Part shown: positions 43,271 through 54,197 of the stretch, one piece after another
Layout of the letters: each line of letters starts with the position of its first letter
Numbering within the stretch: the first letter of the stretch is position 1
DNA from: a virus
Length of the DNA: 64,000 bases
Direction: 5' to 3' (one strand)
Virus record (IMG/VR): IMGVR_UViG_3300045107_000440
Coordinates: 1-64,000 of that record
The notes under the pieces: model-generated
Seen by the model: only the letters and a program-made list of their open reading frames with translations
What the model was told of the DNA's origin: nothing
Databases searched by the model: none
Program-made: the position numbers and the translations under genes

Positions 43271-44173
43271 TCACATCTCCCCCAAACTATCGTCAAAAAA
43301 GTCCTGCCTTTTGAACTTCCCCTTCTGCTGGTCTTTGATCGCCTGCAGCTCCTCCTTAGTTTCCTGGTCTTTCTTCTCCTTTCTGGCTACCCAGGCATCT
43401 ATCCTCGGTCGGTCGATGCGTTCGAACTCTGTCTTTGTCGTCTTTGAAGGCCACCAATTGGTCTCTTGCTGATATTCGAAGTGCGGCCAGGGCAAAACAC
43501 CGTCTTTAACCATCTGTTTTACCTCTTCTGTCCAGTATCTCGGGTGGATCTTATGATAAAAAACCTCGATTATCTTCTTATTTTTCTCCCAGGAGATAGG
43601 TTGTAATCCCCGCTCAACCTGTGTTAAAGAACACTCAGACCATTCCAGCCGCGCAGCGGCAGTCCGAACACTCCACCCACAGTCCAGCCGGCAGGCCTTC
43701 ACTAATCCCCCATCAAACAACAACGTAACAGGCCCCAGAAACTTGAAATTCTCCATACTCTCCAACAACGTAAGCCCAACAGTCAAAAAAAACGGTGTCA
43801 CCCTTGCTTTCCTATGCTGATGAGCGGTCGTCCCCGGAGGGGCGGGAACACGTTTGCTATTATCTACCTCACAAAACCAATTCTCTCTTATCAATTTGTC
43901 CCAATAAGGCATTATCCTTCGCCCCCAATCTCCCCAACCTAAACTATAACTCAAATCCTGTGGCGTAAAATATCCCTTACTCTGCTCAATTCCCCATAAT
44001 TCTAGCAAAATATAAAACTTCCTCTTACGAAGCGTGGGAAATCGCTTCTTACTCTTTCTAATCACATAATCCAATTGAAAAAACCGCCAGGATATGCCGC
44101 TTAATACACTCATACCCTTATCGGCATCGATGAAAAAAGGGTTTTTTAGTGGAATTTGAGGGTTTTGCTTCAA
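43271..44173 (-). CDS. DNA-binding regulator candidate (central HTH)
   Basis: LVKACRLDCGWSVRTAAARLEWSECSLTQVERG looks like an XRE-type HTH. The gene lies next to an 800-nt non-coding region. Confidence 0.5.
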   Translation of the reverse strand: MKQNPQIPLKNPFFIDADKGMSVLSGISWRFFQLDYVIRKSKKRFPTLRKRKFYILLELWGIEQSKGYFTPQDLSYSLGWGDWGRRIMPYWDKLIRENWFCEVDNSKRVPAPPGTTAHQHRKARVTPFFLTVGLTLLESMENFKFLGPVTLLFDGGLVKACRLDCGWSVRTAAARLEWSECSLTQVERGLQPISWEKNKKIIEVFYHKIHPRYWTEEVKQMVKDGVLPWPHFEYQQETNWWPSKTTKTEFERIDRPRIDAWVARKEKKDQETKEELQAIKDQQKGKFKRQDFFDDSLGEM

Positions 44174-44283
44174 GTTTGAAACCGTTTATAAACGTTTACA
44201 CACGGATAATTTTTAGATTCAGAATATTTGGTCAATCACTTCAAACGCAGAATAATCTACTTTTCGAAAAGTATTTAACATAA

Positions 44284-44505
44284 TTAAAAATTATACAACC
44301 TCAACACAGGTAAAACTTTTATTCTGTTTGAATTTCGCATGTTTGCCCATGTTTTGATAACACATACAGCGTTGAAGATCAAACCAAATATTCTTCTAAA
44401 CCTCATTTCCAGCCTGATTTTCACCATCTGCCAAATCTTATTTCGAAACCTGAACTTATAAACAAAAGGTTTTGACCGGCTGAAAAGAAGATTGTTTGGT
44501 TTCAC
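44284..44505 (-). CDS. basic 73-aa ORF (doubtful)
   Basis: GTG start and R/K/F-rich. It may be non-coding sequence downstream of the minus-strand TACATTTG box at 44671-44678. Confidence 0.25.
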   Translation of the reverse strand: MKPNNLLFSRSKPFVYKFRFRNKIWQMVKIRLEMRFRRIFGLIFNAVCVIKTWANMRNSNRIKVLPVLRLYNF

Positions 44506-44572
44506 TGGCTGAAATCTCTGGTTGACAAAATTAGTCGAAAAACATGTGAAATTGCAAGCCAGGGGGGTTTTT

Positions 44573-44606
44573 GAAATCGATTTTCCTGCCAGCGGGCGAC
44601 CCCGGG
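44573..44606 (+). repeat. 33-nt repeat, copy 2 (non-coding region)
   Basis: gaaatcgattttcctgccagcgggcgaccccggg: 30 identical nt, then one extra c, then ggg. Confidence 0.9.
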
Positions 44607-44670
44607 TATTTATACAGATACCCCACCTTCACGTTTCCCTCCAAATTTCCATCATTTAAGCTTATTCATT

Positions 44671-44678
44671 CAAATGTA
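44671..44678 (-). promoter_or_regulatory. -7 box TACATTTG (minus strand)
   Basis: Lies in the 800-nt non-coding region. Transcription from it would run through repeat copy 2 (44573-44606). Confidence 0.4.
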
Positions 44679-44986
44679 AAAAACAGGCTATAGTTTGAAT
44701 TTACGCTGATTTAATGGCATTCAGCTTTCTGTAGAGGTGATTTCAATAAACGACCTCATTTTAAGCCATTACACGAGAGATTAATTCAGGTGTGCCAGAG
44801 GCAGGTAAAGTTCTGGGCGCTGAATGGCCGTCAAATGGCCGCATTACCAGGGGTGTTTTAAGGCCATACCAATCAACGATGGATGTTTCACGTGAAAAAC
44901 TTTTACATTTTTATGTGGAATAATTTGACATAAAAGGACAAATGTTGTACCTATGCCCCAGTAAAATACAATTCAGTTAGCCTTTT

Positions 44987-45202
44987 ATGAGTAAAAACGT
45001 GATTTTCTGGTACGGGAAGAACATTTTTCCAGGCGGACAAGAGGAGGTGATGATGAAGACCATGAAAGGGCTGGCCGATGAGTTGGGTGTGCCTTACAGT
45101 ACGGCCAAGAGTAAGAAGCCAGAAGTGGGTGAGAGGGTTATCTGGAGGAGCGAGATGGGGATTTTTGAAGTTTGGACCAAGGAGGTAAAGAATTTCAGAT
45201 GA
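44987..45202 (+). CDS. small HTH-like protein (excisionase/regulator candidate)
   Basis: MKGLADELGVPYSTAKSK resembles a short HTH. Confidence 0.45.
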   Translation: MSKNVIFWYGKNIFPGGQEEVMMKTMKGLADELGVPYSTAKSKKPEVGERVIWRSEMGIFEVWTKEVKNFR

Positions 45203-45354
45203 TCTACGTGAACAAAATAATCAATTCCGATGTGCTGGGCGAGAAGGGGATCTCGACGGATACGAAACCTTATAGATGATATTCGATCAATGATCGAAGT
45301 GGAGAAAGTAGAGTGGGGCTGTAAGGGTTTTTTGGGGTTTAAAAAATAAAGCAA

Positions 45355-45543
45355 ATGACAAAACTCAAAGGCACGATAAAGGTCAACAACCTTACCAAGG
45401 AATCCAATGCCTCAAGAGACAGAGATTACGCCTTTGTCTTCAGCGAAGACATTCAAGATTGGATGACCTCTCCCAACAGGAGGCAGAATGATAAGAGGCA
45501 TAAGAAGTCGGAGAGGATTAGGAGATTGAAACAATCCGATTAA
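45355..45543 (+). CDS. small basic hypothetical protein
   Basis: Track ORF. Confidence 0.45.
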   Translation: MTKLKGTIKVNNLTKESNASRDRDYAFVFSEDIQDWMTSPNRRQNDKRHKKSERIRRLKQSD

Positions 45544-45635
45544 ATAAACAAGTAAAAACATTTGACTTTTGAACCGCAGGTGCTACATTTGATTTCTATT
45601 TTTAACCACAACAATTTAACCAAAATTATCAGGCC

Positions 45636-45854
45636 ATGACCCAAGAAGAAATTGACAAAATTCAAAGAGACAATAAACAGGATTCGGACATCCTGGAATT
45701 GTTTGACCGCGTGAAGAAGCTGGAAAGCAACGTATTTGCTACAAAAGACGAGTTTGTAAATGTAGCAAAAGACCCAGCGCCTCCAACGGAGCAAGGCAAT
45801 ACTGATCAAGGTGATCATGGTTCTTCAACAGAAGGTGAATCAAGTGCTCAGTAA
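45636..45854 (+). CDS. small acidic hypothetical protein
   Basis: Track ORF. Confidence 0.45.
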   Translation: MTQEEIDKIQRDNKQDSDILELFDRVKKLESNVFATKDEFVNVAKDPAPPTEQGNTDQGDHGSSTEGESSAQ

Positions 45855-45878
45855 CTTGATTGGTAAGTAAAAAGAATT

Positions 45879-45886
45879 TACATTTG
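45879..45886 (+). promoter_or_regulatory. -7 box TACATTTG
   Basis: Lies 3 nt upstream of ATG 45890. Confidence 0.45.
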
Positions 45887-45889
45887 ACT

Positions 45890-46249
45890 ATGAAACGTTT
45901 CATCCTCTTGTCGATCTTAGCTCTCACAGTGGGAGTAATCGGCACCGCGGCTGCAATGCCAGCGGATCATGATGGGTTGAAGTACGAAGTTTCATTCACT
46001 ATCCCGTCCGCGGAGTTTTCCGCCTCTGACGTGGTGATCACCCCCAGCTATGAATTTGTAGTTCCTTTACAGGATACCAAATTCGTGGGAGAAGCAGAAG
46101 GTTACGAGGTTACCAAACTTCGGCCGCCTGCGGAGATCACAAAAGACTTTAATAGTGAAATTTTAACTTCGAATTACTTTGATCCGCCCGGCCAATCAAA
46201 AACCGGTAATCACCTTTTGCCCGACATCAGGCGATTGAGTTGTAATTAA
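45890..46249 (+). CDS. secreted hypothetical protein
   Basis: ATG 45890 (MKRFILLSILALTVGVIGTAAA...). TACATTTG box at 45879-45886 and a terminator at 46274-46307. Confidence 0.55.
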   Translation: MKRFILLSILALTVGVIGTAAAMPADHDGLKYEVSFTIPSAEFSASDVVITPSYEFVVPLQDTKFVGEAEGYEVTKLRPPAEITKDFNSEILTSNYFDPPGQSKTGNHLLPDIRRLSCN

Positions 46250-46273
46250 CAGAAGACTTTAAGGTGATTTAAG

Positions 46274-46307
46274 AAGCCTCGGTAATTTTACTGAGGCTTT
46301 TTGTTTT
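46274..46307 (+). terminator. rho-independent terminator
   Basis: Stem aagcctc/gaggctt plus a T-run, after gene 45890..46249. Confidence 0.6.
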
Positions 46308-46323
46308 TCATTGTAAAATAATA

Positions 46324-46335
46324 TTACTTTGCATC
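46324..46335 (+). promoter_or_regulatory. conserved motif TTACTTTGCATC ahead of leader L1 (-7-box-like)
   Basis: The motif recurs at 46771-46784 and 47418-47429, each time ending at the leader ATG. Confidence 0.45.
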
Positions 46336-46395
46336 ATGAAATCATTCAAACATCAGCGACCCTTCCAACAATCACTTCGTGATACGGGAGAATAG
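46336..46395 (+). CDS. leader mini-ORF L1 (19 aa, MKSFKHQRPFQQSLRDTGE)
   Basis: ATG lies 5 nt after the TTACTTTGCATC motif. Codons 6-9 are cat cag cga ccc (His-Gln-Arg-Pro). The ORF is followed by a terminator and then tRNA Pro, Gln, His, Arg. Confidence 0.55.
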   Translation: MKSFKHQRPFQQSLRDTGE

Positions 46396-46422
46396 CGTCT
46401 GAATTTTTTCAAAGAAATTGAA

Positions 46423-46456
46423 GCCTTCCGTAAACTCGGAGGGCTTTTTTATTTTT
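46423..46456 (+). terminator. terminator/attenuator hairpin of unit 1
   Basis: gccttccg (46423-30) pairs with cggagggc (46437-44), followed by T6AT5. tRNA-Pro starts at 46457. Confidence 0.6.
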
Positions 46457-46531
46457 CGGGCATTGGAGGAGTCCGCAGTCCTCGCTTCACTTGGAATGAA
46501 GAGATCGTTGGTTGAAATCCAGCATGCCCGA
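46457..46531 (+). tRNA. tRNA-Pro (anticodon TGG)
   Basis: Hand fold: acceptor cgggcat/atgcccg, anticodon arm cttca-cttggaa-tgaag, T arm gttgg-ttgaaat-ccagc. Confidence 0.8.
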
Positions 46532-46532
46532 C

Positions 46533-46603
46533 TGCCGTATCGTATAAAGGTAGTACACGAGACTTTGATTCTCGGAGTGGAGGTTCGATACCTTCTACGG
46601 TAA
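46533..46603 (+). tRNA. tRNA-Gln (anticodon TTG)
   Basis: Acceptor tgccgta/tacggta (U1-A72), anticodon arm cgaga-ctttgat-tctcg, T loop ttcgata. Confidence 0.8.
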
Positions 46604-46610
46604 CTTATAT

Positions 46611-46683
46611 GGTGATTTTCGACTAATGGCTAAGTCGCCTCTCTGTGAAAGAGGAAAAGAGAGATCGAAACTCTCACTTCACC
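46611..46683 (+). tRNA. tRNA-His (anticodon GTG)
   Basis: Anticodon arm cctct-ctgtgaa-agagg. An encoded G-1 is opposite C73. Two mismatches in the acceptor stem. Confidence 0.7.
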
Positions 46684-46688
46684 CAAAT

Positions 46689-46760
46689 GTTCCCGTGGTC
46701 TAATGGAAGGGCACTGAGCTACGAACTCAGAATATCAAGGTTCGAGTCCTTGCGGGAATA
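46689..46760 (+). tRNA. tRNA-Arg (anticodon ACG)
   Basis: Acceptor gttcccg/cgggaat, anticodon arm ctgag-ctacgaa-ctcag, T arm caagg-ttcgagt-ccttg. Confidence 0.8.
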
Positions 46761-46770
46761 CAGATTATTA

Positions 46771-46784
46771 TTAACTTTGCATCC
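46771..46784 (+). promoter_or_regulatory. conserved motif TTAACTTTGCATCC ahead of leader L2
   Basis: See 46324-46335. Confidence 0.45.
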
Positions 46785-46853
46785 ATGAACAAGAAAGGAC
46801 TATTGTCGCTCTCATTAAGTTATTCGATGAATAACCGAGAGGATATTGTCTAA
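46785..46853 (+). CDS. leader mini-ORF L2 (22 aa, MNKKGLLSLSLSYSMNNREDIV)
   Basis: ATG follows TTAACTTTGCATCC. Codons 6-14 are cta ttg tcg ctc tca tta agt tat tcg. The ORF is followed by a terminator and then tRNA Leu x3, Ser x2, Tyr. Confidence 0.6.
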   Translation: MNKKGLLSLSLSYSMNNREDIV

Positions 46854-46876
46854 ACTTTTCAAAAAAGAAATTAGCG

Positions 46877-46906
46877 AAAGCCTCTCAGAAATGGGAGGCT
46901 TTTTTT
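46877..46906 (+). terminator. terminator/attenuator hairpin of unit 2
   Basis: aaagcctctc (46877-86) pairs with gggaggcttt (46893-902), with a T-run to 46906. The next tRNA starts at 46909. Confidence 0.6.
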
Positions 46907-46908
46907 AT

Positions 46909-46983
46909 GCACGCGTAGCCCAATTGGCAGGAGGCGCCAGATTTAGGATCTGGGCAGTGTGGGTTCGAATCCCTCCGCGTGTA
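46909..46983 (+). tRNA. tRNA-Leu-like (anticodon TAG), short variable region
   Basis: Acceptor gcacgcg/cgcgtgt, Leu-type D loop (aattggcag), anticodon arm ccaga-tttagga-tctgg, A73. Only about 5 nt lie between the anticodon and T arms. Confidence 0.65.
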
Positions 46984-46987
46984 CTAT

Positions 46988-47061
46988 CGGGGTGTGGTGC
47001 AATCGGCAGACACGTCAGACTTAAAATCTGAATGTTGCAAGTTCGAATCTTGCCATCCCGA
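46988..47061 (+). tRNA. tRNA-Leu-like (anticodon TAA), short variable region
   Basis: Acceptor cggggtg/catcccg, anticodon arm tcaga-cttaaaa-tctga, T arm gcaag-ttcgaat-cttgc, A73. Confidence 0.65.
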
Positions 47062-47065
47062 CAAT

Positions 47066-47139
47066 GCGCAAATAGCCCAATCGGCAGAGGCAATAGTTTC
47101 AAAAACTATTAAGTAATGGTTCGAATCCATTTTTGCGCA
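47066..47139 (+). tRNA. tRNA-Leu-like (anticodon CAA), short variable region
   Basis: Acceptor gcgcaaa/tttgcgc, anticodon arm atagt-ttcaaaa-actat, T arm aatgg-ttcgaat-ccatt, A73. Confidence 0.65.
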
Positions 47140-47142
47140 CAT

Positions 47143-47224
47143 AGAGAGTTAACGTACCCGGGTACGGCCAGCCTGCTAAGCTGCGCGATCCGAAAGGATT
47201 CTGGATCAGGGCCAGAACTCTCTG
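47143..47224 (+). tRNA. tRNA-Ser-like (anticodon GCT), atypical D and T loops
   Basis: Acceptor agagagt/actctct, anticodon loop ctgctaa, long variable arm gatcc-gaaa-ggatt, T arm tctgg-atcaggg-ccaga, D arm cgtac-ccgg-gtacg. Confidence 0.55.
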
Positions 47225-47230
47225 CTTTAT

Positions 47231-47314
47231 GGAGAATAGCGTCCATGGGGGCAAGCGGTCTTGAAAACCGTAGCGGTCGTGATGAGCGACAGGGTTCGAT
47301 TCCTATATTCTCCG
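47231..47314 (+). tRNA. tRNA-Ser (anticodon TGA)
   Basis: Acceptor ggagaat/attctcc, anticodon arm gcggt-cttgaaa-accgt, a long variable arm, and a weak T stem. Confidence 0.65.
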
Positions 47315-47319
47315 CTTTT

Positions 47320-47391
47320 GGGATGATACACGGGGCTTGTAGGATTGTCTGTAAAACAAAACCTCATGAAGTTCGAGTCTTCTCCATCCCA
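47320..47391 (+). tRNA. tRNA-Tyr-like (anticodon GTA), short variable region
   Basis: Acceptor gggatga/ccatccc (6 of 7 pairs), anticodon arm ttgt-ctgtaaa-acaa, T loop ttcgagt. The D arm is poorly defined. Confidence 0.5.
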
Positions 47392-47417
47392 CGTTTGTTT
47401 TGTATAAAAATTTTACA

Positions 47418-47429
47418 TTACTTTGCGTC
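47418..47429 (+). promoter_or_regulatory. conserved motif TTACTTTGCGTC ahead of leader L3
   Basis: See 46324-46335. Confidence 0.45.
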
Positions 47430-47504
47430 ATGATTAAAGAAAGCGCAAATATTGAGGAAGCTGAGGAACAAAATGTTCCGGTAGCCAAATTGGTAAGGCG
47501 CTAG
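47430..47504 (+). CDS. leader mini-ORF L3 (24 aa, MIKESANIEEAEEQNVPVAKLVRR)
   Basis: ATG follows TTACTTTGCGTC. It has 5 Glu codons, and its 3' end overlaps the start of tRNA-Glu. Confidence 0.45.
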   Translation: MIKESANIEEAEEQNVPVAKLVRR

Positions 47505-47548
47505 ACTTTCACTCTAGTAATGTGCGGGTTCGAGTCCCGTTCGGAACA
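47475..47548 (+). tRNA. tRNA-Glu (anticodon TTC)
   Basis: Acceptor gttccgg/tcggaac, D arm gcc-aaattggtaa-ggc, anticodon arm ctaga-ctttcac-tctag, T arm gcggg-ttcgagt-cccgt. Confidence 0.8.
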
Positions 47549-47559
47549 CTAAAATAAAA

Positions 47560-47649
47560 ATGATTTTGAAAACTTGGTTTACGATAGTGATGATTGGATT
47601 TACAGCAAGAAATTGCGGTAAAGATCGCATTGTTATGACCGGGTGCTGA
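47560..47649 (+). CDS. leader mini-ORF L4 (29 aa, MILKTWFTIVMIGFTARNCGKDRIVMTGC)
   Basis: Starts 12 nt after tRNA-Glu. Its residue set matches the 13 isotypes of the 14 tRNAs downstream. A terminator follows at 47677-47710. Confidence 0.55.
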   Translation: MILKTWFTIVMIGFTARNCGKDRIVMTGC

Positions 47650-47676
47650 CATACACTTTCGAATAAAAAAAGAAAT

Positions 47677-47710
47677 GCCCCGGTCAAGTAAGATCGGGGC
47701 TTTGTGTTTT
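47677..47710 (+). terminator. terminator/attenuator hairpin of unit 4
   Basis: gccccgg (47677-83) pairs with tcggggc (47694-700), followed by tttgtgtttt. tRNA-Ala starts at 47713. Confidence 0.55.
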
Positions 47711-47712
47711 AT

Positions 47713-47786
47713 GGGCCGCTGGCAGAATTGGCTATGCACCTGTTTTGCAAACAGGATCAACTGGGTTCGAAGCCCAGGCGTGTCCA
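47713..47786 (+). tRNA. tRNA-Ala-like (anticodon TGC)
   Basis: Anticodon arm cctgt-tttgcaa-acagg and T arm ctggg-ttcgaag-cccag. The acceptor is imperfect in either register. A CCA is encoded at 47787-47789. Confidence 0.55.
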
Positions 47787-47839
47787 CCAAAGATGTTTGA
47801 ATGCTCATTTGCTTCCACGTAGGGAGACATCTTTTTTAA

Positions 47840-47911
47840 GGGTTGGTAGCTCAGAGGAAGAGCAGGGGTTTGTTAAACCTCAGGTCGAGATTTCAAAATT
47901 CTCCCATCCCT
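47840..47911 (+). tRNA. tRNA-Asn (anticodon GTT)
   Basis: D arm gctc-agaggaa-gagc and anticodon arm ggggt-ttgttaa-acctc. Acceptor gggttgg/ccatccc has one mismatch. Confidence 0.7.
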
Positions 47912-47912
47912 C

Positions 47913-47984
47913 ACATCGGAATGCCAATGGTGGCGAACAGGTCTCCAAAACCAGTTGCGCTTGGTTCGATCCCAAGTCGATGTG
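47913..47984 (+). tRNA. tRNA-Trp (anticodon CCA)
   Basis: Acceptor acatcgg/tcgatgt, anticodon loop ctccaaa, T arm cttgg-ttcgatc-ccaag. Confidence 0.75.
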
Positions 47985-48110
47985 CAAACGGATACGTAGC
48001 GCTGACAGATGGGAGTAGACATGATATCTGGAATATCGAGTAATCCCAGTAATACCGCTAGTTAAGCCACCGTGGATAAATTAAAGGGCTTCAAAATAGT
48101 CTGTCAACAT

Positions 48111-48183
48111 TCCGGAAAAGCTCATGTGGAAGAGCTACTGTTTTGTAAACAGAAGGTTGTCGGTTCGAACCCGTCTTCCGGAT
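48111..48183 (+). tRNA. tRNA-Thr (anticodon TGT)
   Basis: Acceptor tccggaa/ttccgga, D arm gctc/gagc, anticodon loop tttgtaa, T loop ttcgaac. Confidence 0.75.
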
Positions 48184-48218
48184 CATGAAAAGGCGAAGAT
48201 GAAATATTTTGTAACCAA

Positions 48219-48291
48219 GCTCCCGTAGCTTAAATGCAAAAGCATTTCTCTTCTAAAGAAACGAGTGTGGGTTGGAGTCCCACCGGGAGTT
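48219..48291 (+). tRNA. tRNA-Arg (anticodon TCT)
   Basis: Acceptor gctcccg/cgggagt, anticodon arm tttct-cttctaa-agaaa, T arm gtggg-ttggagt-cccac. Confidence 0.8.
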
Positions 48292-48294
48292 CAT

Positions 48295-48366
48295 CGGCCC
48301 TTGGCGCAATGGTGGCGCACCTCGCTCATAACGAGGCGGACGACAGATCGGTACTGTCAGGGCCAA
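48295..48366 (+). tRNA. tRNA-Met (anticodon CAT), C1xA72 mismatch
   Basis: D arm gcgc-aatggtg-gcgc, anticodon arm cctcg-ctcataa-cgagg, T arm gacag-atcggta-ctgtc. Confidence 0.75.
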
Positions 48367-48399
48367 CTATGGAAAGTGATAAGAAAAGCTACGGCATAA

Positions 48400-48471
48400 C
48401 TTGTCGTAGCTTAATGGTGGAGCACCAGACTTTTAATCTGGGGGACGTTGGATCAGTACCAACCGGCAAGA
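48400..48471 (+). tRNA. tRNA-Lys (anticodon TTT)
   Basis: Acceptor cttgtcg/cggcaag, anticodon arm ccaga-cttttaa-tctgg, T arm gttgg-atcagta-ccaac. Confidence 0.8.
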
Positions 48472-48477
48472 CAATAT

Positions 48478-48549
48478 TCTGATGTAGCTCATCGGTAGAG
48501 AGCGGATCTGATAAGTCCGTGGCAGATGGTTCAATTCCATCCATCAGAA
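48478..48549 (+). tRNA. tRNA-Ile (anticodon GAT)
   Basis: Acceptor tctgatg/catcaga, anticodon arm cggat-ctgataa-gtccg, T arm gatgg-ttcaatt-ccatc. Confidence 0.8.
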
Positions 48550-48550
48550 C

Positions 48551-48621
48551 TGTGGGGTAGATTAACGGTAGATCAATGGGCTCATAACCCATGCGTGAGG
48601 GTTCGATTCCCTTCCCCGCTA
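48551..48621 (+). tRNA. tRNA with anticodon CAT (elongator Met or lysidine-type Ile2)
   Basis: Anticodon arm atggg-ctcataa-cccat and T arm gaggg-ttcgatt-ccctt. CCA is encoded after A73. Confidence 0.7.
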
Positions 48622-48624
48622 CCA

Positions 48625-48697
48625 GGGCAGATAACAAACATGGTGTATGTGCCAGACTGAAAATCTGGAAATCGTGGATCGTTACCACGTCTGCCCA
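48625..48697 (+). tRNA. tRNA-Phe (anticodon GAA)
   Basis: Acceptor gggcaga/tctgccc, anticodon arm ccaga-ctgaaaa-tctgg, T arm cgtgg-atcgtta-ccacg. Confidence 0.8.
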
Positions 48698-48701
48698 CAA
48701 T

Positions 48702-48777
48702 GCCTCGATAGCTCAGCCTGATTTAGAGCAACTTCCTTACAAGAAGAAGGCCGGTGGTTTGAATCCATCTCGGGGCA
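48702..48777 (+). tRNA. tRNA-Val (anticodon TAC)
   Basis: Acceptor gcctcga/tcggggc, anticodon loop cttacaa, T arm ggtgg-tttgaat-ccatc. Confidence 0.75.
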
Positions 48778-48784
48778 CAAAAAA

Positions 48785-48858
48785 GCGATACACGCATAAG
48801 AGGTGGTGCACAAGTCTTCCAAACTTGAAAAGATTCGGTTCGATCCCGAAGTATCGCT
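48785..48858 (+). tRNA. tRNA-Gly (anticodon TCC)
   Basis: Acceptor gcgatac/gtatcgc, anticodon arm caagt-cttccaa-acttg, T arm ttcgg-ttcgatc-ccgaa. Confidence 0.8.
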
Positions 48859-49026
48859 CTAAGATCAGGAGGTTGCATGTTGGATTCATGTCATCCACTT
48901 GGATTAAGTTTTATGAAATAGCGGAGCAAAGACAGTAAAATGTCAACAGCCTAAGTAAAACTCCAAATATGTTCCGAAGTACAAGTGAACGGATGTAGCT
49001 CAATGTCAGAGCGTCTGATCTTAACC

Positions 49027-49096
49027 GTTGGTATTGGTTCCGGGAGCCGTGTGGTCTGCAAAATCACAGAGAACAGTTCGACCCTGTTTACCAACT
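49027..49096 (+). tRNA. tRNA-Cys (anticodon GCA)
   Basis: Acceptor gttggta/taccaac, anticodon arm gtggt-ctgcaaa-atcac, T arm aacag-ttcgacc-ctgtt. Confidence 0.7.
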
Positions 49097-49099
49097 CAT

Positions 49100-49176
49100 G
49101 GAATATGGGCCTGCAGGGTGTGGGCACTCGCCTGTCACGCGAGAAATTCAGTCGGGTTCGATCCCCGAATATTCCG
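49100..49176 (+). tRNA. tRNA-Asp (anticodon GTC)
   Basis: Acceptor ggaatat/atattcc, anticodon arm ctcgc-ctgtcac-gcgag, T arm tcggg-ttcgatc-cccga. Confidence 0.8.
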
Positions 49177-49341
49177 CTTAATCTCCTCCTCCGTTAACTC
49201 CTTTTTGATAAAAGCTATCTTATCGCTGCTGCAGAAGCAAAGTATACCTTGCTCATTCCCTTTGATTTCAAACTTTTTATCTACCAGAGATTCGGTAGTT
49301 TTCTCAAAGATTATTTCGGCACCGCAGTGTAGGCAGATCAT
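49135..49341 (-). CDS. small Cys-containing hypothetical protein
   Basis: Track ORF (MICLHCGAEIIFEK...). Its 3' end overlaps tRNA-Asp on the other strand. Confidence 0.4.
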   Translation of the reverse strand: MICLHCGAEIIFEKTTESLVDKKFEIKGNEQGILCFCSSDKIAFIKKELTEEEIKRNIRGSNPTEFLA

Positions 49342-49481
49342 TTGGACTTTTTTACAACATCTTTCCTTATAGACCTAAGCACAGTTTTATCCCTTTCGCT
49401 GAGGATAGTGCATTTGTTACTGGAGTTCAAAAGAACTTTCATCAGGAACAATTTCTCTTCTATCGTTACCTTCTTTGGCAT
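49338..49481 (-). CDS. 47-aa hypothetical protein
   Basis: MPKKVTIEEKLFLMKVLLNSSNKC...; overlaps both neighbours by 1-4 nt. Below the ORF-track cutoff. Confidence 0.4.
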   Translation of the reverse strand: MPKKVTIEEKLFLMKVLLNSSNKCTILSERDKTVLRSIRKDVVKKSK

Positions 49482-49828
49482 CAAAAAGGCAAGTCATCTT
49501 TTGAAGTAGATGGCTGTTCAGGAGTTTGCTGATTTCCCGGCTGCCATTTGCGTGCCTGCTGCTGATCCCATTCTATTTTGAAGGCGTTGACCTGAGTGTA
49601 CCAGCGGCCATTGTACTCCCGGCTTTCAAGACTGATATGTGCCGTTAAAGTTATTCCTGGCTCAAGATCGTACTTGTCGATTAGATCCTGTCCCCAAAGG
49701 GAGATGCAGACGTTTTTAGGATATTGGCCAGGCGTTTCAAGAATAAAGTCGAGCTTACTCCATTGGCCATTTTTGCCCTGACCGGTTACAATCGGGAGGA
49801 CTTGTTTTACGATGCCTTTGATTTGCAT
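49481..49828 (-). CDS. OB-fold ssDNA-binding-like protein (DUF3127 type) with SSB-like acidic tip
   Basis: ATG at 49828 (MQIKGIVKQVLPIVTGQGKNGQWSKLDFILETPGQYPKNVCISLWG...SREYNGRWYTQVNAFKI). A Q/P-rich tail ends in DDLPF. Confidence 0.65.
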   Translation of the reverse strand: MQIKGIVKQVLPIVTGQGKNGQWSKLDFILETPGQYPKNVCISLWGQDLIDKYDLEPGITLTAHISLESREYNGRWYTQVNAFKIEWDQQQARKWQPGNQQTPEQPSTSKDDLPF

Positions 49829-50023
49829 GTTAAATAGGGTTAAAAAAGTGCCTGTCTTTCCAGGCTGCCAGTAATAACCAGCCATTACAAGGGAGTTTTT
49901 ACACACCGAATGGTACCTCTCCGTTACCTCGTTTTGAACATCACGCTGGCTGGCCTTCTTCTTACTTGCCGATCCCCATACCGGGGGAACTGTGGAATGC
50001 AAACAGAGAGGCGTTAAAATCGT

Positions 50024-50458
50024 TTATTCGAGGATCATCCAATCCTCGGCAGCGGCATCGCTCGGTGATGGAGTCCAGCCGAAAATGTCATTGTTAGGAT
50101 ACACGATGGCAAATTGATTGTTGTACCTGATCGTGTTGTAAAAAATTGGATCAATAGGCAAGGAGGTTGCTGAGACATTGCTTTCTTTCACTTGTTCACC
50201 AACTTCAAATCTTCTCAAAAACTCATTCTTCACTGAGTCAGGAAGGCTTTGCATTTTTGGAACGATCTCCAATTTTATCTCGGAGGGCACTTGCATGAAT
50301 ACAAATAATCCTTTTCCGTTCCATCCTGCGCGTTGAAGCATTTTGCCGTTCTTCATTGCTTGCACAGCCTGACCAAAATTCAATTTGGTAGTTGGTGTTT
50401 TTTCAGGGTCTTTCTTTAATTCTTCGTCCATGTCTTTGTCGTTTGCTTTAGCCGGCAT
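50024..50458 (-). CDS. DUF2829-domain protein (Tad2-like candidate)
   Basis: FGQAVQAMKNGKMLQRAGWNGKGLFVFMQVP matches the DUF2829 N-terminal signature as I remember it. Confidence 0.6.
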   Translation of the reverse strand: MPAKANDKDMDEELKKDPEKTPTTKLNFGQAVQAMKNGKMLQRAGWNGKGLFVFMQVPSEIKLEIVPKMQSLPDSVKNEFLRRFEVGEQVKESNVSATSLPIDPIFYNTIRYNNQFAIVYPNNDIFGWTPSPSDAAAEDWMILE

Positions 50459-50466
50459 CCCGCGGG

Positions 50467-50763
50467 TTAGATTTTTTCGTAAGTTTTTTCAAAAATTTCT
50501 TTCTTGCAGGGATAGAACTGTCGATCTTGAGTTGGAAATGGTTCTTCGATAACCCAATCACCAGGCATTACTTTCATGTCTCCTTCGTTAGTAGGAATAA
50601 CCAAACTGAAAATTGGTGCACCTTGCCCAGCCAGATAAGCGGTTTCTGATTCAAGCTCAGTCCGCAAATCAAGTTCAGTCCATTTAATTATTTCCTCACG
50701 ATTCAATCCTGTATATTGAATTGCAAGGACTTTTGTTGGTTTTTTTCTGAATACTTCTATCAT
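50467..50763 (-). CDS. hypothetical protein
   Basis: Track ORF. Confidence 0.55.
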   Translation of the reverse strand: MIEVFRKKPTKVLAIQYTGLNREEIIKWTELDLRTELESETAYLAGQGAPIFSLVIPTNEGDMKVMPGDWVIEEPFPTQDRQFYPCKKEIFEKTYEKI

Positions 50764-51011
50764 AAATCGTATTTGGTTAAAAGTTTCTTGTACTCCTCCA
50801 TTTGCTCATTGAATTCCATCGAAGGGTTTAATTCCTTTAATCGAAGGAACTCACGCTTCACTATCTCCAATCTTACTTCCCTTTCTGGTTGGCCGCAGAT
50901 GTGCTTAAACATCACAGACTCCGCTTGTGACCAACTACCTTGATGGATGCCTATCGAAGCACCACAATGCAGACATTTAAGAGTTGAGTATGATTGATCA
51001 GGCCAAGTCAT
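50760..51011 (-). CDS. hypothetical protein
   Basis: Track ORF; 4-nt overlaps. Confidence 0.5.
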   Translation of the reverse strand: MTWPDQSYSTLKCLHCGASIGIHQGSWSQAESVMFKHICGQPEREVRLEIVKREFLRLKELNPSMEFNEQMEEYKKLLTKYDL

Positions 51012-51394
51012 TTTTTACTAGCGTAATCGATTAAAACAATTTTGTTATCTAAAAATCCAATGTTCTCTCGTTTCAAATCTGAGAAGTGATTTCTGATGGG
51101 ATTTTCAGAAATCCAATTGTGTAAAAAAACGATGTAATCAACCGGCTGCGCGCGCCTCATGATCAAAATCCATCCTCCCCACGAACACCAAAGCACAGGG
51201 CACAGGGACGTCCTCACTTCATACAAGGCACTTCCTTTAACATTTGCGCACTTCCACGTCAAAGACTCTTCCATGTTCCCGACAAGCCCGAGAAGAAAGT
51301 GTTTCCACGCACAAGGGTTGGGAAACTTGATAGCCCATTTGCCTATAAGCAATACCCAGCGCGTGACTCCGGTGGTGATGAATTGAATTTCCAT
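51008..51394 (-). CDS. hypothetical protein
   Basis: Track ORF. A TACATTTG box on the minus strand at 51402-51409 lies just upstream. Confidence 0.55.
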   Translation of the reverse strand: MEIQFITTGVTRWVLLIGKWAIKFPNPCAWKHFLLGLVGNMEESLTWKCANVKGSALYEVRTSLCPVLWCSWGGWILIMRRAQPVDYIVFLHNWISENPIRNHFSDLKRENIGFLDNKIVLIDYASKK

Positions 51395-51401
51395 TGTGCT
51401 T

Positions 51402-51409
51402 CAAATGTA
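51402..51409 (-). promoter_or_regulatory. -7 box TACATTTG (minus strand)
   Basis: Lies 7 nt upstream of the start at 51394. Confidence 0.45.
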
Positions 51410-51521
51410 AAAATAATTAACCAAAGTATTTGCATGAAAGAAAAATTATTTTACTTTTGATCCATGATTTGACACTCTAATGCGTTCTTTATTATCATGC
51501 GTTTATAGGTTTGGAAAAAAA

Positions 51522-51782
51522 ATGGCGGCTTTTAGGGTGGCCGCCTTTTTTAAACTCAATGAAAAAAAAGTGGAAAAGTTACATGACAATGCGGTTTGCC
51601 CTATTTGTAATAAACAGGGACTTAGCCTGGTTCACGAGCGGAGCCTGGCAGTAAACGGTATTGTCGAAATCCACGCCAACGAATATTATGGACACTATGT
51701 GCATGGGGGAGATAATTTACTGATCCGATTTGGATTAGCGGAAGATGTAGAGGAGTTGATAGGGGCGATTCGTTTGCAGTAA
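51522..51782 (+). CDS. hypothetical protein (CPIC motif), doubtful start
   Basis: ATG 51522 within track ORF 51480..51782. A GC hairpin plus T-run (51524-51552) lies inside its 5' end. Confidence 0.35.
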   Translation: MAAFRVAAFFKLNEKKVEKLHDNAVCPICNKQGLSLVHERSLAVNGIVEIHANEYYGHYVHGGDNLLIRFGLAEDVEELIGAIRLQ

Positions 51783-51800
51783 AACGTTCATTGAAGATAT

Positions 51801-51860
51801 TCTCCGGATTAAGGATCACAACCTAAACAGGCGCTCGTGAACGCCTGAGTCCGGAGATTT
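51801..51860 (+). other. compound hairpin immediately upstream of the second tRNA cluster
   Basis: tctccgga (51801-08) pairs with tccggaga (51850-57). Inner hairpin caggcg/cgcctg (51828-47). Then ttt and the tRNA at 51861. Confidence 0.5.
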
Positions 51861-51935
51861 GGGGAAGTAGCTCAACTGGGTAGAGCGCTGGGGTGTTTTC
51901 CCGGAAGGTTGTTGGTTCGAGTCCAGCCTTCTCCA
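51861..51935 (+). tRNA. tRNA of uncertain identity (central triplet GTT in a non-canonical loop gtgtttt; G3-U70 and A73)
   Basis: Clean cloverleaf: acceptor ggggaag/cttctcc, D arm gctc-aactgggta-gagc, T arm gttgg-ttcgagt-ccagc. The anticodon loop has G32 and T37. Confidence 0.55.
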
Positions 51936-51958
51936 CGAAACGTTCTTTAAAAATTATT

Positions 51959-52109
51959 GGGGTGTTAGCCTTTATTGGCAAAGGCTTCTCGATGTTAATT
52001 GCATCAGGGCAGTAGTTAAAATAAAATTATTGGTTGCAAACATGATTTTATAAATAGACCACGAAAGAAGCAAGCTTCTTTATTATCGGTTCGATTCCGA
52101 TACACTCCA
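51959..52109 (+). ncRNA. oversized tRNA-like gene (151 nt)
   Basis: Acceptor ggggtgt (51959-65) pairs with acactcc (52102-08), including G3-U70, with A73. It has a normal D arm gcc-tttattggcaaa-ggc and T arm atcgg-ttcgatt-ccgat. About 95 nt sit where a 17-nt anticodon arm is expected. Confidence 0.4.
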
Positions 52110-52122
52110 CAATTGGAATCCT

Positions 52123-52246
52123 AGAGAGGTGGCGGAAGATAGACGACTTACGAATCGACTAAGTAAGGTTCAAAGGCCGGTCGATGCTGGGAAGTAACAG
52201 CCCTTAGCGTGGCCAGAAATGCAGGTATCGAATCCTGCCCTCTCTG
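52123..52246 (+). ncRNA. oversized tRNA-like gene (124 nt)
   Basis: Acceptor agagagg (52123-29) pairs perfectly with cctctct (52239-45). It has a Leu-like D region tggcggaagatagac and T arm gcagg-tatcgaat-cctgc. Extra internal hairpins include 52154-59/52180-85. Confidence 0.4.
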
Positions 52247-52266
52247 GGTTCCTTTGGTTTTAACAT

Positions 52267-52340
52267 CGCGGGGTGGAGCAGTTGGTCAGCTCGTTGGGTT
52301 CATATCCCAAAGGTCACAAGTTCGAGTCTTGTCCCCGCTA
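52267..52340 (+). tRNA. initiator-type tRNA-Met (anticodon CAT)
   Basis: Anticodon arm ttggg-ttcatat-cccaa has three consecutive G-C pairs next to the loop. There is a 1:72 mismatch (C x T). T arm acaag-ttcgagt-cttgt. Confidence 0.75.
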
Positions 52341-52342
52341 CT

Positions 52343-52582
52343 ATGAAATATACATGTGAATTTTGCAAAAAAGAATTCGATTCATGGTTTTATTATAAGA
52401 TTCATTCTTGTAATAAAGACACATCGACCCAATCAGAATCGATTACTGAATACAAATATGATGATACGTCTTCACAACAAGATTCTCCCATCATAGACTC
52501 GTCTTCCGATTCGGGCATTAGTTCAGAAGATTTTGGCGGTGGTGGTGATTTTGGCGGTGGCGGATCAAGCGACAGTTGGTAA
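52343..52582 (+). CDS. small zinc-finger-like protein with Gly-rich tail
   Basis: CEFCKKEF...HSC followed by DFGGGGDFGGGGSSDSW. Starts 3 nt after the initiator-type tRNA. Confidence 0.5.
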   Translation: MKYTCEFCKKEFDSWFYYKIHSCNKDTSTQSESITEYKYDDTSSQQDSPIIDSSSDSGISSEDFGGGGDFGGGGSSDSW

Positions 52583-52783
52583 TGAAAGATTTGATTGTAA
52601 TCCAAGGCCGACTCCATCATAGATTCTAATGAAATTCTGACCCCAGAGATATTTGACCGGCTTTGGAACGGAGGAGATCCTTCAAAAAACGTATCGCATG
52701 TTTACGACCTGATCATTCAGGAACTTGACTCCGAGCAACGCGTAAGCTACAAGGCTAATTTTAATGACTCTAAGAAAGCGATA

Positions 52784-53602
52784 TTGGAATTCGGGGGAGA
52801 GAACCTCACCTTCCAGGAGATAACTTCTGAGTGGCTCAGAAGATTTGAAAAGGCTCCATCGATGAAGAAAGATAAGGATGGAAACTCCTACCCAAGGAGC
52901 AAATCTACCATAGGTTTCTACCTGCGGCCTTTGCGTAAAGTTTTCAATAGAGCGATTAAAATGCGCCTAGTGTCCTCCGAGTTCTACCCCTTCGGGGATC
53001 AAGGGTATAAAATTAAGAAAGGGAAGAACGTTAAGAAAGCTTTGAGTACCGAGCAGAAAAATCAATTGCTGGTTTATTCCCCGAACTCAGATAAAGAACA
53101 GGAGGCGTGGGATTACTTTGTCTTCAGTTACTTCTGTAACGGCATGAACTTTGCTGACATCGCTAAGATTCAAAGGAAACACATTACAGAAAGGTCTATC
53201 TTGTTTTACCGGCAGAAGACCGACAGCGAGATCATTGAAATCCCTTTGAGAAAGGAGATACGGGAAATCATTTTACGCAGAGGCGTGCATGATCTATCAC
53301 CTCATGCTTTTGTCTTCCCGATCTACACTCACAATATGAGTGCCCAGGATAAATTGGAGAAGAAAAAAGAGTGGATTAAAAAGACAAATGAGGAGCTGGA
53401 GATCATATCAAAGAACCTGAATTTTCCCTTTAAGTTAACGACCTACCATGCCAGACATACGTTTGCTACCGTGGCTTTAAGAAATGGCGCTCCAAAGGAG
53501 TTTATTCAAAAGGCGTTGGGACACACGAGCATGAACACCACAGAAAATTATCTGGCAGATCTTGAATTTGATGTTAAGAAGGCTGTTTCGGATGGGCTGT
53601 AG
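52784..53602 (+). CDS. int: tyrosine recombinase/integrase, possibly degenerate
   Basis: C-terminal box HARHTFAT...LGHTSMNTTENYL is present. The only canonical-type start is TTG 52784, although the frame and SAM-like-domain-type sequence stay open back to 52601. The expected first catalytic Arg position reads N (CNGMNFADI). Confidence 0.65.
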   Translation: MEFGGENLTFQEITSEWLRRFEKAPSMKKDKDGNSYPRSKSTIGFYLRPLRKVFNRAIKMRLVSSEFYPFGDQGYKIKKGKNVKKALSTEQKNQLLVYSPNSDKEQEAWDYFVFSYFCNGMNFADIAKIQRKHITERSILFYRQKTDSEIIEIPLRKEIREIILRRGVHDLSPHAFVFPIYTHNMSAQDKLEKKKEWIKKTNEELEIISKNLNFPFKLTTYHARHTFATVALRNGAPKEFIQKALGHTSMNTTENYLADLEFDVKKAVSDGL

Positions 53603-53717
53603 CTTTATTCCTTCTTTTGCTTGGTGTCTTCTTCTTGGGGAGGAAATAATTGGATAATGATAAAAAGACAAAAACTACTATTCAGAATGCAAAACAAAAG
53701 GTAATATTCTATAATTG

Positions 53718-54197
53718 TCATTTGTTTCTGGTTATAGTGAATTGACTTTTAACTTCTTCTCTAACTTGTGGAAACTGGTTATGGTAAATTATGATACCAT
53801 TTTCAATATCCTTCCAAAGCTCCTCCTGCGTCTCCTCCTTCACTTCCTCTTTCTTCTTGAGGATGGCAACGGTTATAATTTCAGCATTCTCAGCGCATCC
53901 AATGTTGTCAGGATCATTGTAGCTTGGAACCCATCCGGAAGAAAGTACTTCTTTAATCTCCACCTCCCAGCCATCTGGTATTGGGTAGAGCTTGCCTTCG
54001 ATTGGTTCTAAGTCTTCTGATACGGTAAAGAAATTCCATGCGGTTTGATCTTCGAACGGCACAAACGTTTCGCCTATTGCCCTAGCAAGGTCTTCTTCGT
54101 ATTGCTTTTTAAGTCCTATAAATCTAGGATCATGATCTATTTTCTCAGGCGCTTCAATAACGCCAAAGACTCCGTTTTTTAAAATTGCTGCTTTCAT
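53718..54197 (-). CDS. hypothetical protein
   Basis: Track ORF. Confidence 0.55.
   Translation of the reverse strand: MKAAILKNGVFGVIEAPEKIDHDPRFIGLKKQYEEDLARAIGETFVPFEDQTAWNFFTVSEDLEPIEGKLYPIPDGWEVEIKEVLSSGWVPSYNDPDNIGCAENAEIITVAILKKKEEVKEETQEELWKDIENGIIIYHNQFPQVREEVKSQFTITRNK

Follow-up and report, generated by a model that had tools for sequence, protein, structure and literature searches.

Phage genomes may carry transfer RNA (tRNA) genes in large arrays, and the 64,000-nucleotide (nt) stretch analysed here, positions 1 to 64,000 of the IMG/VR virus record IMGVR_UViG_3300045107_000440 (hereafter the window), holds an array of 25 such genes at 46457-49177, all on one strand. The array falls into four units, each opening with a short open reading frame (ORF), and the second of them (unit 2) is in our judgement probably a ribosome-mediated, or leader-peptide, transcription attenuator placed ahead of six phage tRNA genes. 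An earlier note on this DNA had proposed just such an attenuator sensing the six isoacceptors. The proposal is supported by our analysis: the structural features that it demands and that can be examined were found in unit 2, and the same design recurs in the sister units and in other phages.

The predicted unit 2 leader reads atg aac aag aaa gga cta ttg tcg ctc tca tta agt tat tcg atg aat aac cga gag gat att gtc taa. The earlier note had singled out codons 6-14 as an uninterrupted nine-codon Leu/Ser/Tyr run in which all six downstream tRNAs are represented, and both statements hold: the codon listing of the ORF agrees with the first, and each of the six tRNAs has at least one codon in the run when ctc is assigned to Leu-TAG on the assumption of four-way wobble of U34. 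Given the codon usage of the phage, in which codons of the Leu/Ser/Tyr block make up 19%, a run of at least nine own-block codons has p~1e-5, and among the 515 short ATG-initiated ORFs in the window it is the unit 2 leader that contains the longest Leu/Ser/Tyr run, nine codons, with seven in the runner-up. Coverage of all six tRNAs adds only modest evidence to this, because it has P=0.11 once nine Leu/Ser/Tyr codons are given.

Upstream of the leader, a putative Bacteroidota-type promoter can be recognised, the -33 TTG of which (46750-46752) lies within the 3' end of the upstream tRNA-Arg, while its -7 box, TAACTTTG (46772-46779), ends 5 nt ahead of the ATG. Because the box stands so close to the start codon, the messenger RNA (mRNA) is probably leaderless, with a start site that we place by the position of the -7 box. 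In eight of the 12 units compared, 4-5 nt separate the start codon from the end of a box like TAnnTTTG, and three of the four leaders in the window are preceded by a TWACTTTG box ending 4-5 nt before the ATG, which we take to resemble the Bacteroidota -7 promoter element. The box-N4-ATG layout also starts ordinary protein genes in Bacteroidota genomes. As a separate observation, the motif GTTGTATRTTTRCMRWATGAA is found mostly in Bacteroidota genomes, where its ATG often begins an ordinary gene, for example one for a PadR-like regulator; this distribution fits widespread leaderless mRNAs with a -7 box 4 nt before the start codon.

The RNA between the run and the first tRNA can be partitioned into four regions with mutually exclusive pairings (Table 1). 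Regions 3 and 4 make up a G+C-rich terminator stem of 12 bp (46876-46887 with 46892-46903, -17.3 kcal/mol) followed by seven U (46900-46906), which ends 2 nt before the first tRNA, Leu-TAG; leader and terminator together fold with a z-score of -4.05 against shuffles. The competing 2:3 helix joins GAGAGG at 46837-46842 to CCUCUC at 46881-46886 and 46846-46849 to 46874-46877, giving a duplex of -12.6 kcal/mol that is reached by 0.4% of dinucleotide shuffles (p=0.004). For the 1:2 helix (46804-46813 with 46837-46845), also of -12.6 kcal/mol, support is marginal (shuffle p=0.04). The earlier note had described a terminator pairing 46877-46886 with 46893-46902, with a T-run to 46906, and an alternative helix of 6 bp between 46837-46842 and 46881-46886. 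The former is recovered within the 12-bp stem; of the latter the pairing stands and the length does not, as the antiterminator is longer.

What would a translating ribosome do to these pairings? We placed a ribosome codon by codon, with an assumed footprint of -15 to +14 nt around the A site, and scored the energy that the upstream RNA gains by capturing the 5' arm of the terminator while the 3' arm is still to be transcribed. For an A site on any of codons 5-13, 10-12 kcal/mol of antiterminator pairing is predicted; the value falls to 4 at codon 14 and to about 1 from codon 15 to the stop codon, where the modelled footprint masks region 2 and leaves the terminator arm free. Constrained folds likewise form the 2:3 antiterminator with a ribosome on the regulatory codons. 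In this model, the regulatory run of unit 2 ends exactly where the ribosome starts to occlude region 2, as the classical logic of the trp, his and phe leaders would have it.

We envision a scenario whereby host RNA polymerase would start at the Bacteroidota-type promoter a few bases upstream of the ATG, and a ribosome would load on the leaderless, or nearly leaderless, mRNA and translate the 22-codon leader. If scarcity or lack of charging of a tRNA slowed decoding of cta/ctc, ttg, tta, tcg/tca, agt or tat, the ribosome would stall on codons 6-13, sitting over region 1 and leaving region 2 (46837-46849) free; region 2 might then take the terminator 5' arm (46874-46887), and polymerase would read through into the Leu/Ser/Tyr tRNA genes. 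Fast decoding would instead bring the ribosome to the stop codon, where it would mask region 2, so that the terminator (46876-46903 and the seven U) could form and transcription would end. The outcome would be a demand-driven supply of the tRNAs of the block, and a self-limiting one, since the tRNA made would also be the molecule sensed. Units 1 and 4 would act alike for their own blocks. Four elements of this scheme are inferred from sequence: where transcription starts, that the leader is translated, which way the switch works and which signal it answers to physiologically. The likely trigger would be a shortage of host tRNA during infection, which decay, anticodon-nuclease defences (PMC10264068, PMC11464382) or a mismatch in codon usage could bring about. 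Taking the idea further, we lean, if only slightly, towards the view that in phages of Flavobacteriia and related Bacteroidota tRNA arrays are generally not constitutive: each block would stand behind a codon-resolved sensor that switches on when any of the codons it serves slows, be it through host tRNA decay, anticodon-nuclease cleavage or codon-usage mismatch, and switches off once phage tRNAs have accumulated.

Table 1. Features of unit 2, of its sister units and of comparable units in other phages (window coordinates unless another contig is named; the 80% threshold refers to the ARAGORN score)
Feature	Coordinates	Strand	Description
Unit 2, putative promoter	46750-46779	+	Bacteroidota type, read from sequence
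Unit 2, leader ORF	46785-46853	+	22 codons and TAA; MNKKGLLSLSLSYSMNNREDIV, then stop
Unit 2, regulatory run (codons 6-14)	46800-46826	+	cta ttg tcg ctc tca tta agt tat tcg = L L S L S L S Y S
Unit 2, region 1	46804-46813	+	UGUC-G-CUCUC, inside codons 7-10; pairs with region 2 without ribosome in the minimum-free-energy fold
Unit 2, region 2	46837-46849	+	GAGAGGAUAUUGU, 2-14 nt before the stop codon; predicted partner is region 1 or the terminator 5' arm
Unit 2, region 3	46874-46887	+	Terminator 5' arm and two flanking bases
Unit 2, region 4	46892-46906	+	Terminator 3' arm (46892-46903) and U-run (46900-46906)
tRNA-Leu(TAG)	46909-46984	+	ARAGORN default
tRNA-Leu(TAA)	46988-47062	+	ARAGORN default
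tRNA-Leu(CAA)	47066-47140	+	ARAGORN default
tRNA-Ser(GCT)	47143-47225	+	ARAGORN at 80% threshold only
tRNA-Ser(TGA)	47231-47315	+	ARAGORN at 80% threshold only
tRNA-Tyr(GTA)	47320-47392	+	73 nt; ARAGORN at 80% threshold only
Unit 1	46336-46761	+	Leader MKSFKHQRPFQQSLRDTGE, then stop (46336-46395); terminator 46420-46447; then Pro-TGG, Gln-TTG, His-GTG, Arg-ACG
Unit 3	47430-47549	+	Glu-rich ORF MIKESANIEEAEEQN..., runs into tRNA-Glu (47475-47549)
Unit 4	47560-49177	+	Leader MILKTWFTIVMIGFTARNCGKDRIVMTGC, then stop (47560-47649); terminator 47677-47700; then 14 tRNAs: Ala, Asn, Trp, Thr, Arg-TCT, Met, Lys, Ile, Met, Phe, Val, Gly, Cys, Asp
Array tRNAs needing 80% threshold			Ser-GCT, Ser-TGA, Tyr-GTA, Trp-CCA, Gly-TCC
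phi38:1 unit			MKTIMNIATDIRTKGVK..., then Lys, Ile, Gly, Met, Asp, Thr, Val, Arg-TCT, Ile-TAT
phi38:1 unit			MKTNMTYNNFSWYSNCSFSSYN..., then Tyr, Ser, Ser, Asn, Trp, Phe, Cys
phi38:1 unit			MNVTLLHQEPLEQLRLP..., then Pro, Glu, Gln, His, Leu, Arg-ACG
L258 unit			IMG/VR contig of 106.8 kb; MKITSTYSSLSLLYS, then stop; terminator; Leu-TAG, Leu-TAA, Ser-TGA, Ser-GCT, Tyr-GTA
Small hydrophobic protein gene	L158 35062-35208; L159 7269-7418; L219 5754-5888; L161 3338-3484	reverse in L219	

The sister units permit the same questions to be asked within one array. Own-block codons account for seven of 18 in the unit 1 leader (p=0.003) and for 26 of 28 in that of unit 4 (p=3e-4), which includes all 13 amino acids of its block and is devoid of Glu, Gln, His, Pro, Ser and Tyr; in unit 3, five of the first 14 codons are Glu (p=0.001), and the ORF reads 10 codons into tRNA-Glu. 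For its own block, each of the four leaders comes out on top of the 515 ORFs, alone or tied, and the longest own-block runs in units 1-4 are 4, 9, 2 and 26 codons, as against at most 4 for any wrong block; the four leaders split the amino acids as their tRNA blocks do. The ribosome-position profiles of units 1 and 4 are the same as that of unit 2, and the 2:3 duplex of unit 4 reaches -19.3 kcal/mol (p=0.0015). No separate promoter precedes the unit 4 leader, which comes after the tRNA-Glu of unit 3. In the minimum-free-energy fold of unit 3, Glu codons in the 3' part of the ORF pair with the 5' half of the tRNA; this fold is not significant (z=-1.2), and the idea of a tRNA mis-folding switch in this unit was dropped on that ground. 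As a side observation, the tRNA block of unit 4 holds two gaps without a confident tRNA call, of 125 nt (47986-48110) and 167 nt (48860-49026), the second of which contains a short ORF, MLDSCHPLGLSFMK, ahead of the Cys and Asp tRNAs.

The succession of promoter, leader, terminator and tRNA block was found in at least seven other phage genomes or contigs, namely in the Cellulophaga phages phi38:1, Calle_1 and phi4:1, in the Maribacter phage Panino, in a Lacinutrix-associated contig and in several IMG/VR contigs. These carriers include distant cultured relatives of the window phage, and phi4:1 is an unrelated myovirus. In the units of other genomes, the leader ATG lies 4-5 nt, at times about 20 nt, downstream of the promoter box, and a strong hairpin with a U-run directly precedes the first tRNA in all units save unit 3 of the window. 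One of the phi38:1 leader ORFs is annotated as a hypothetical protein (gp066). The unit in contig L258 reads as an independent Leu/Ser/Tyr unit like unit 2.

Comparison of leaders across phages gives own-block runs of 9-16 codons versus at most five for wrong blocks; the composition of the predicted leaders follows the composition of their blocks from phage to phage. Where tRNAs are regrouped in the window phage, with Leu joining Ser and Tyr, Glu standing alone, and Asn, Trp, Phe and Cys included in the large block, the leaders have changed alike. Over 16 units, 164 of 208 codons (79%) at antitermination-competent positions belong to the own block, compared with 75 of 179 (42%) elsewhere (Fisher p=5.5e-14). 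The Arg codons offer a finer resolution: before Arg-ACG blocks, the regulatory part of the leader uses cga, cgc or cgt in five of five cases and never cgg, and before blocks with a called Arg-TCT it uses aga in three of three. Because leader Arg codons thus match the Arg isoacceptor of the block, codon choice points to sensing at the level of isoacceptors rather than amino acids. The A-type leaders of Panino and of the Lacinutrix contig use aga too, and no Arg-TCT was called in the stretches examined there. In the tRNA arrays of KVP40 and crAss001, which served as controls, no systematic leader ORFs were found. Two ORFs in these arrays are loosely leader-like and not significant after multiple testing: MYNREKRNIIQKLMKSFSKKMFTTI before Leu, Phe, Lys, Lys and Glu in KVP40 (L169 3879-3956), and an F-rich ORF before Phe and Leu in crAss001 (L171 4195-4278). 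Of two wider scans, one of IMG/VR with an anticodon-loop pattern gave chance matches only, and one with a back-translated QELEQP leader pattern recovered only phi4:1.

Several observations speak against an attenuator in unit 2, or against extending it to the whole array. The antiterminator is weaker than the terminator (-12.6 against -17.3 kcal/mol), and therefore the switch must be kinetic, as in trp. Ribosome-free folds of truncated RNA already contain the 2:3 pairing in unit 2, so that the default without translation is not clearly to terminate, and the state of the ribosome-free RNA is ambiguous in some units. In unit 1, neither the 2:3 helix (p=0.14) nor the 1:2 helix (p=0.16) reaches significance when taken individually. 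Unit 3 has its own promoter box and a matched Glu-rich ORF, yet no terminator, which means that one mechanism does not explain the whole array. Half of the tRNAs of the block (Ser-GCT, Ser-TGA and Tyr-GTA) are deviant and score poorly with tRNA callers. Finally, the phage has no close relatives that could show nucleotide covariation within unit 2; the leaders of phi38:1 and Calle_1, at 98-99% identity, are too similar to each other for covariation, and their few differences fall outside the regulatory runs or turn a G-U into an A-U pair in a stem.

How else might matched leaders in front of tRNA blocks be explained? A translated leader could sense the same codons and act post-transcriptionally, on the folding of tRNA precursors, on their processing by RNase P, E or Z or on their stability, with the hairpin serving as a constitutive partial terminator or insulator. 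Unit 3, whose Glu-rich ORF enters tRNA-Glu without a terminator and can pair through its 3' part with the 5' half of the tRNA, speaks for such a mechanism, as does the need for read-through from the upstream unit to pass each terminator. We nonetheless regard it as unlikely: the unit 3 fold is the non-significant one described above, every other unit has a strong hairpin and U-run directly before its first tRNA, and across 16 units the last regulatory codons coincide with the point from which the footprint would obstruct the segment that captures the terminator, an agreement that processing does not predict.

Alternatively, unit 2 may be a true attenuator for which the evolved signal is amino-acid starvation, that is, uncharged tRNA, so that phage tRNA output would be tied to host nutrition and not to tRNA abundance. 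A stalled ribosome is blind to the difference between a missing and an uncharged tRNA, and classical attenuators do answer to charging. Extra tRNA, however, brings no relief from amino-acid starvation; the leaders separate Arg CGN codons from AGA according to the isoacceptor of the block, a distinction needless for an amino-acid sensor; and each leader covers every tRNA of its block, with up to 13 amino acids in unit 4. These considerations make nutrition a distinctly improbable signal.

Short ORFs are plentiful, with the 515 in the window, and a few ORFs, phi38:1 gp066 among them, carry the annotation 'hypothetical protein', so the ORFs might be chance occurrences or encode small peptides with a function of their own, their likeness to the tRNA blocks being coincidental or compositional. 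Such an origin is hardly credible given p values between 1e-5 and 3e-3 per unit in four independent units, the ranking of each leader for its own block, a composition that tracks blocks across phages with Arg codon families following the isoacceptor, and the negative controls. It is just as hard to credit that the codon run acts untranslated, as a T-box-like RNA that binds anticodons of uncharged tRNAs to stabilise an antiterminator: an element before a terminator that senses tRNAs does recall T-boxes, but Rfam gives no T-box or other riboswitch match even at E<=10 (for T-box, RF00230, a search of 46300-46920 at E<=10 and one of 44000-54000 at E<=1 gave none), every run keeps to a single frame that opens with an ATG 4-5 nt after the promoter box and closes with a stop codon, and the codons break off at a point that would be significant for the footprint of a ribosome and not for contact with a tRNA. 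The chance, micropeptide and T-box-like readings were accordingly rejected on codon statistics, frame, footprint and Rfam evidence. None of the four alternatives accounts for codons that stop where the footprint reaches region 2.

Leader-peptide attenuation in unit 2, the reading that we prefer, belongs to a textbook class of mechanism; the novelty lies in tRNA genes as its target, in leaders whose several codons match the block behind them and in its occurrence in viruses. Leader-peptide attenuators are known for amino-acid biosynthetic operons (trpL, hisL, pheL, leuL, thrL and ilvL), with which the phage units share a short ORF with regulatory codons, four regions forming exclusive 1:2, 2:3 and 3:4 helices of which 3:4 is an intrinsic terminator, a ribosome that at the stop codon would lie over region 2, and regulatory codons about 65-100 nt before the terminator 3' arm. 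Unlike these classical examples, the phage units would regulate tRNAs instead of enzymes, and their leaders mix codons for three to 13 amino acids, with at least one per downstream tRNA; the element is viral, is repeated within one tRNA array and has an apparently leaderless mRNA without a Shine-Dalgarno sequence. Their likeness to the classical type extends to Rfam only at the level of architecture, since matches to Phe_leader (RF01859) reach 29.7 bits at 46784-46908 and 28.4 bits in unit 1, below the gathering score of 55.

Multivalent attenuators exist as well, as the thr operon senses Thr and Ile and ilvGMEDA senses Leu, Val and Ile, and the pheM leader of pheST controls a product of the translation apparatus and answers to the status of tRNA-Phe. 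The phage leaders resemble the former in that one leader would sense several amino acids, and the latter in that the product is part of the translation apparatus; they differ in a multivalence that matches a polycistronic tRNA block one-to-one and in a product tRNA that is itself the sensed molecule, which would give direct negative feedback. T-box riboswitches need no translation, since the RNA itself binds one tRNA through its specifier codon and T-box sequence; with them the phage units have in common that tRNA status would set the choice between terminator and antiterminator upstream of translation-related genes, and from them they are set apart by the absence of T-box motifs. To our knowledge, all described attenuators of the leader-peptide type regulate genes for amino-acid biosynthesis, amino-acid transport or aminoacyl-tRNA synthetases, and unit 2, with six tRNA genes, departs from them in what is regulated.

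Phage tRNA arrays have been discussed as codon compensation or as a counter-defence against tRNA-cleaving immunity (PMC10264068, PMC11464382). Those studies concern the same cargo, large sets of phage tRNAs, and ask why the tRNAs are carried; attenuators, leaders, terminators and promoters are not mentioned in them. Full-text literature searches brought up no account of tRNA genes controlled by a leader peptide, and none is given in the paper on phage tRNAs as counter-defence or in the one reporting the infection transcriptomes of phi38:1 and phi4:1 on Cellulophaga baltica (PMC5335546). If our reading is correct, these would be the first tRNA genes under ribosome-mediated attenuation, and the direct feedback from decoding speed to tRNA supply would be a new use of attenuation. 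Phage tRNA arrays would then be inducible, block-wise responses and not passive codon supplements, a notion that bears on the debate about tRNA-targeting antiphage defence, and the leaders would give a natural read-out of the isoacceptors that a phage expects to lose. They would furthermore serve as an independent functional annotation of deviant phage tRNAs, such as the 73-76-nt Leu and Tyr tRNAs or Arg-ACG versus Arg-TCT, and as compact natural sensors for up to 13 amino acids or tRNAs, with possible use in synthetic biology. The idea lends itself to direct testing, since cultured phage-host pairs with this design exist, among them the Cellulophaga systems of phi38:1 and phi4:1.

The tRNA assignments on which the matching depends deserve separate attention. 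In the array, 20 tRNAs were called by ARAGORN with default settings and five more at an 80% score threshold. The six anticodons of unit 2 given by the earlier note agree with these calls (three of them at the 80% threshold), and no tool assigned different ones when callers were run as a check. The three Leu tRNAs score 53-63 bits against the Rfam tRNA model and Ser-TGA scores 36.1 bits against the tRNA-Sec model, below its gathering score of 47; Ser-GCT and Tyr-GTA have no Rfam match even at E<=10. The unit 2 Tyr tRNA has a homologue of 76% identity with the same acceptor stem in L258, an unrelated phage contig. The earlier note had further argued that the leader supports the Leu and Tyr identity of the structurally odd tRNAs, which holds for what they decode, that is, the anticodon, and not for the amino acid that they carry. 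The oddity itself lies in the long variable arm usual in bacterial Leu and Tyr tRNAs, which is absent from the three Leu tRNAs (75-76 nt) and from Tyr (73 nt). L258 carries equally short Leu-TAG and Tyr tRNAs (2027-2101 and 2606-2679), and BLAST finds similar short tRNA-Leu genes in many actinophages (for example 91.5% identity in Gordonia phage Sixama). In addition, L258 encodes a tRNA with the anticodon CTA at 1140-1212, an amber suppressor that ARAGORN labels 'Pyl' and that may reflect recoding of TAG in that phage.

Some features of the units in other genomes stand beside the question of attenuation. Three tRNA blocks with leaders, Pro-Glu-Gln-His-Leu-Leu-Arg, Ala-Lys-Ile-Gly-Met-Asp-Thr-Val-Arg and Tyr-Ser-Ser-Asn-Trp-Phe-Cys, recur in L158, L159, L160, L161, L219, L225 and L228, across phage families (the podovirus phi38:1, the myovirus phi4:1, Panino and others). 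This recurrence of blocks that keep their leaders suggests a mobile tRNA cassette exchanged among phages of Flavobacteriia. In phi38:1, Calle_1, Panino and the Lacinutrix contig, a conserved gene for a small hydrophobic protein of about 45-49 amino acids (MITFLVGVLAGAAGFALILKNNPK...) adjoins the leader of the Ala/Lys/Ile block upstream; the Panino leader, which lies behind this gene, has no promoter box of its own.

The window as a whole represents a phage genome with genes for a portal protein, large terminase, virion proteins, an integrase and a Tad2-like protein, and its terminase is about 26% identical to podophage terminases of Flavobacterium, Cellulophaga and Tenacibaculum. Searches with neighbouring proteins (DUF3127, a 129-residue, a 300-residue and a Cpn10-like protein) revealed no close relatives, returning no homologues or homologues without tRNA arrays, and an integrase query found no relative among the genome contigs searched. 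The only other copies of the window sequence are its source, a 64.8-kb contig in Logan SRR35386017, and an identical JGI contig. Just before its end, the latter, elsewhere identical, jumps from 49523 to 49171 and thereby skips 351 bp (49172-49522), which may mark an indel variant or have arisen in assembly at the contig end. Two further tRNA genes lie outside the array (51861-51936 and 52267-52341), for a total of 27 that cover all 20 amino acids in a phage of about 65-69 kb; if one of the three CAT tRNAs reads ATA, the tRNAs of the window, and already the 25 of the array, can decode all sense codons bar CGG. The Tad2-like (anti-Thoeris) gene, at 50024-50458 on the minus strand, is separated from the end of the tRNA array by 850 bp and adjoins the gene for the DUF3127 protein.

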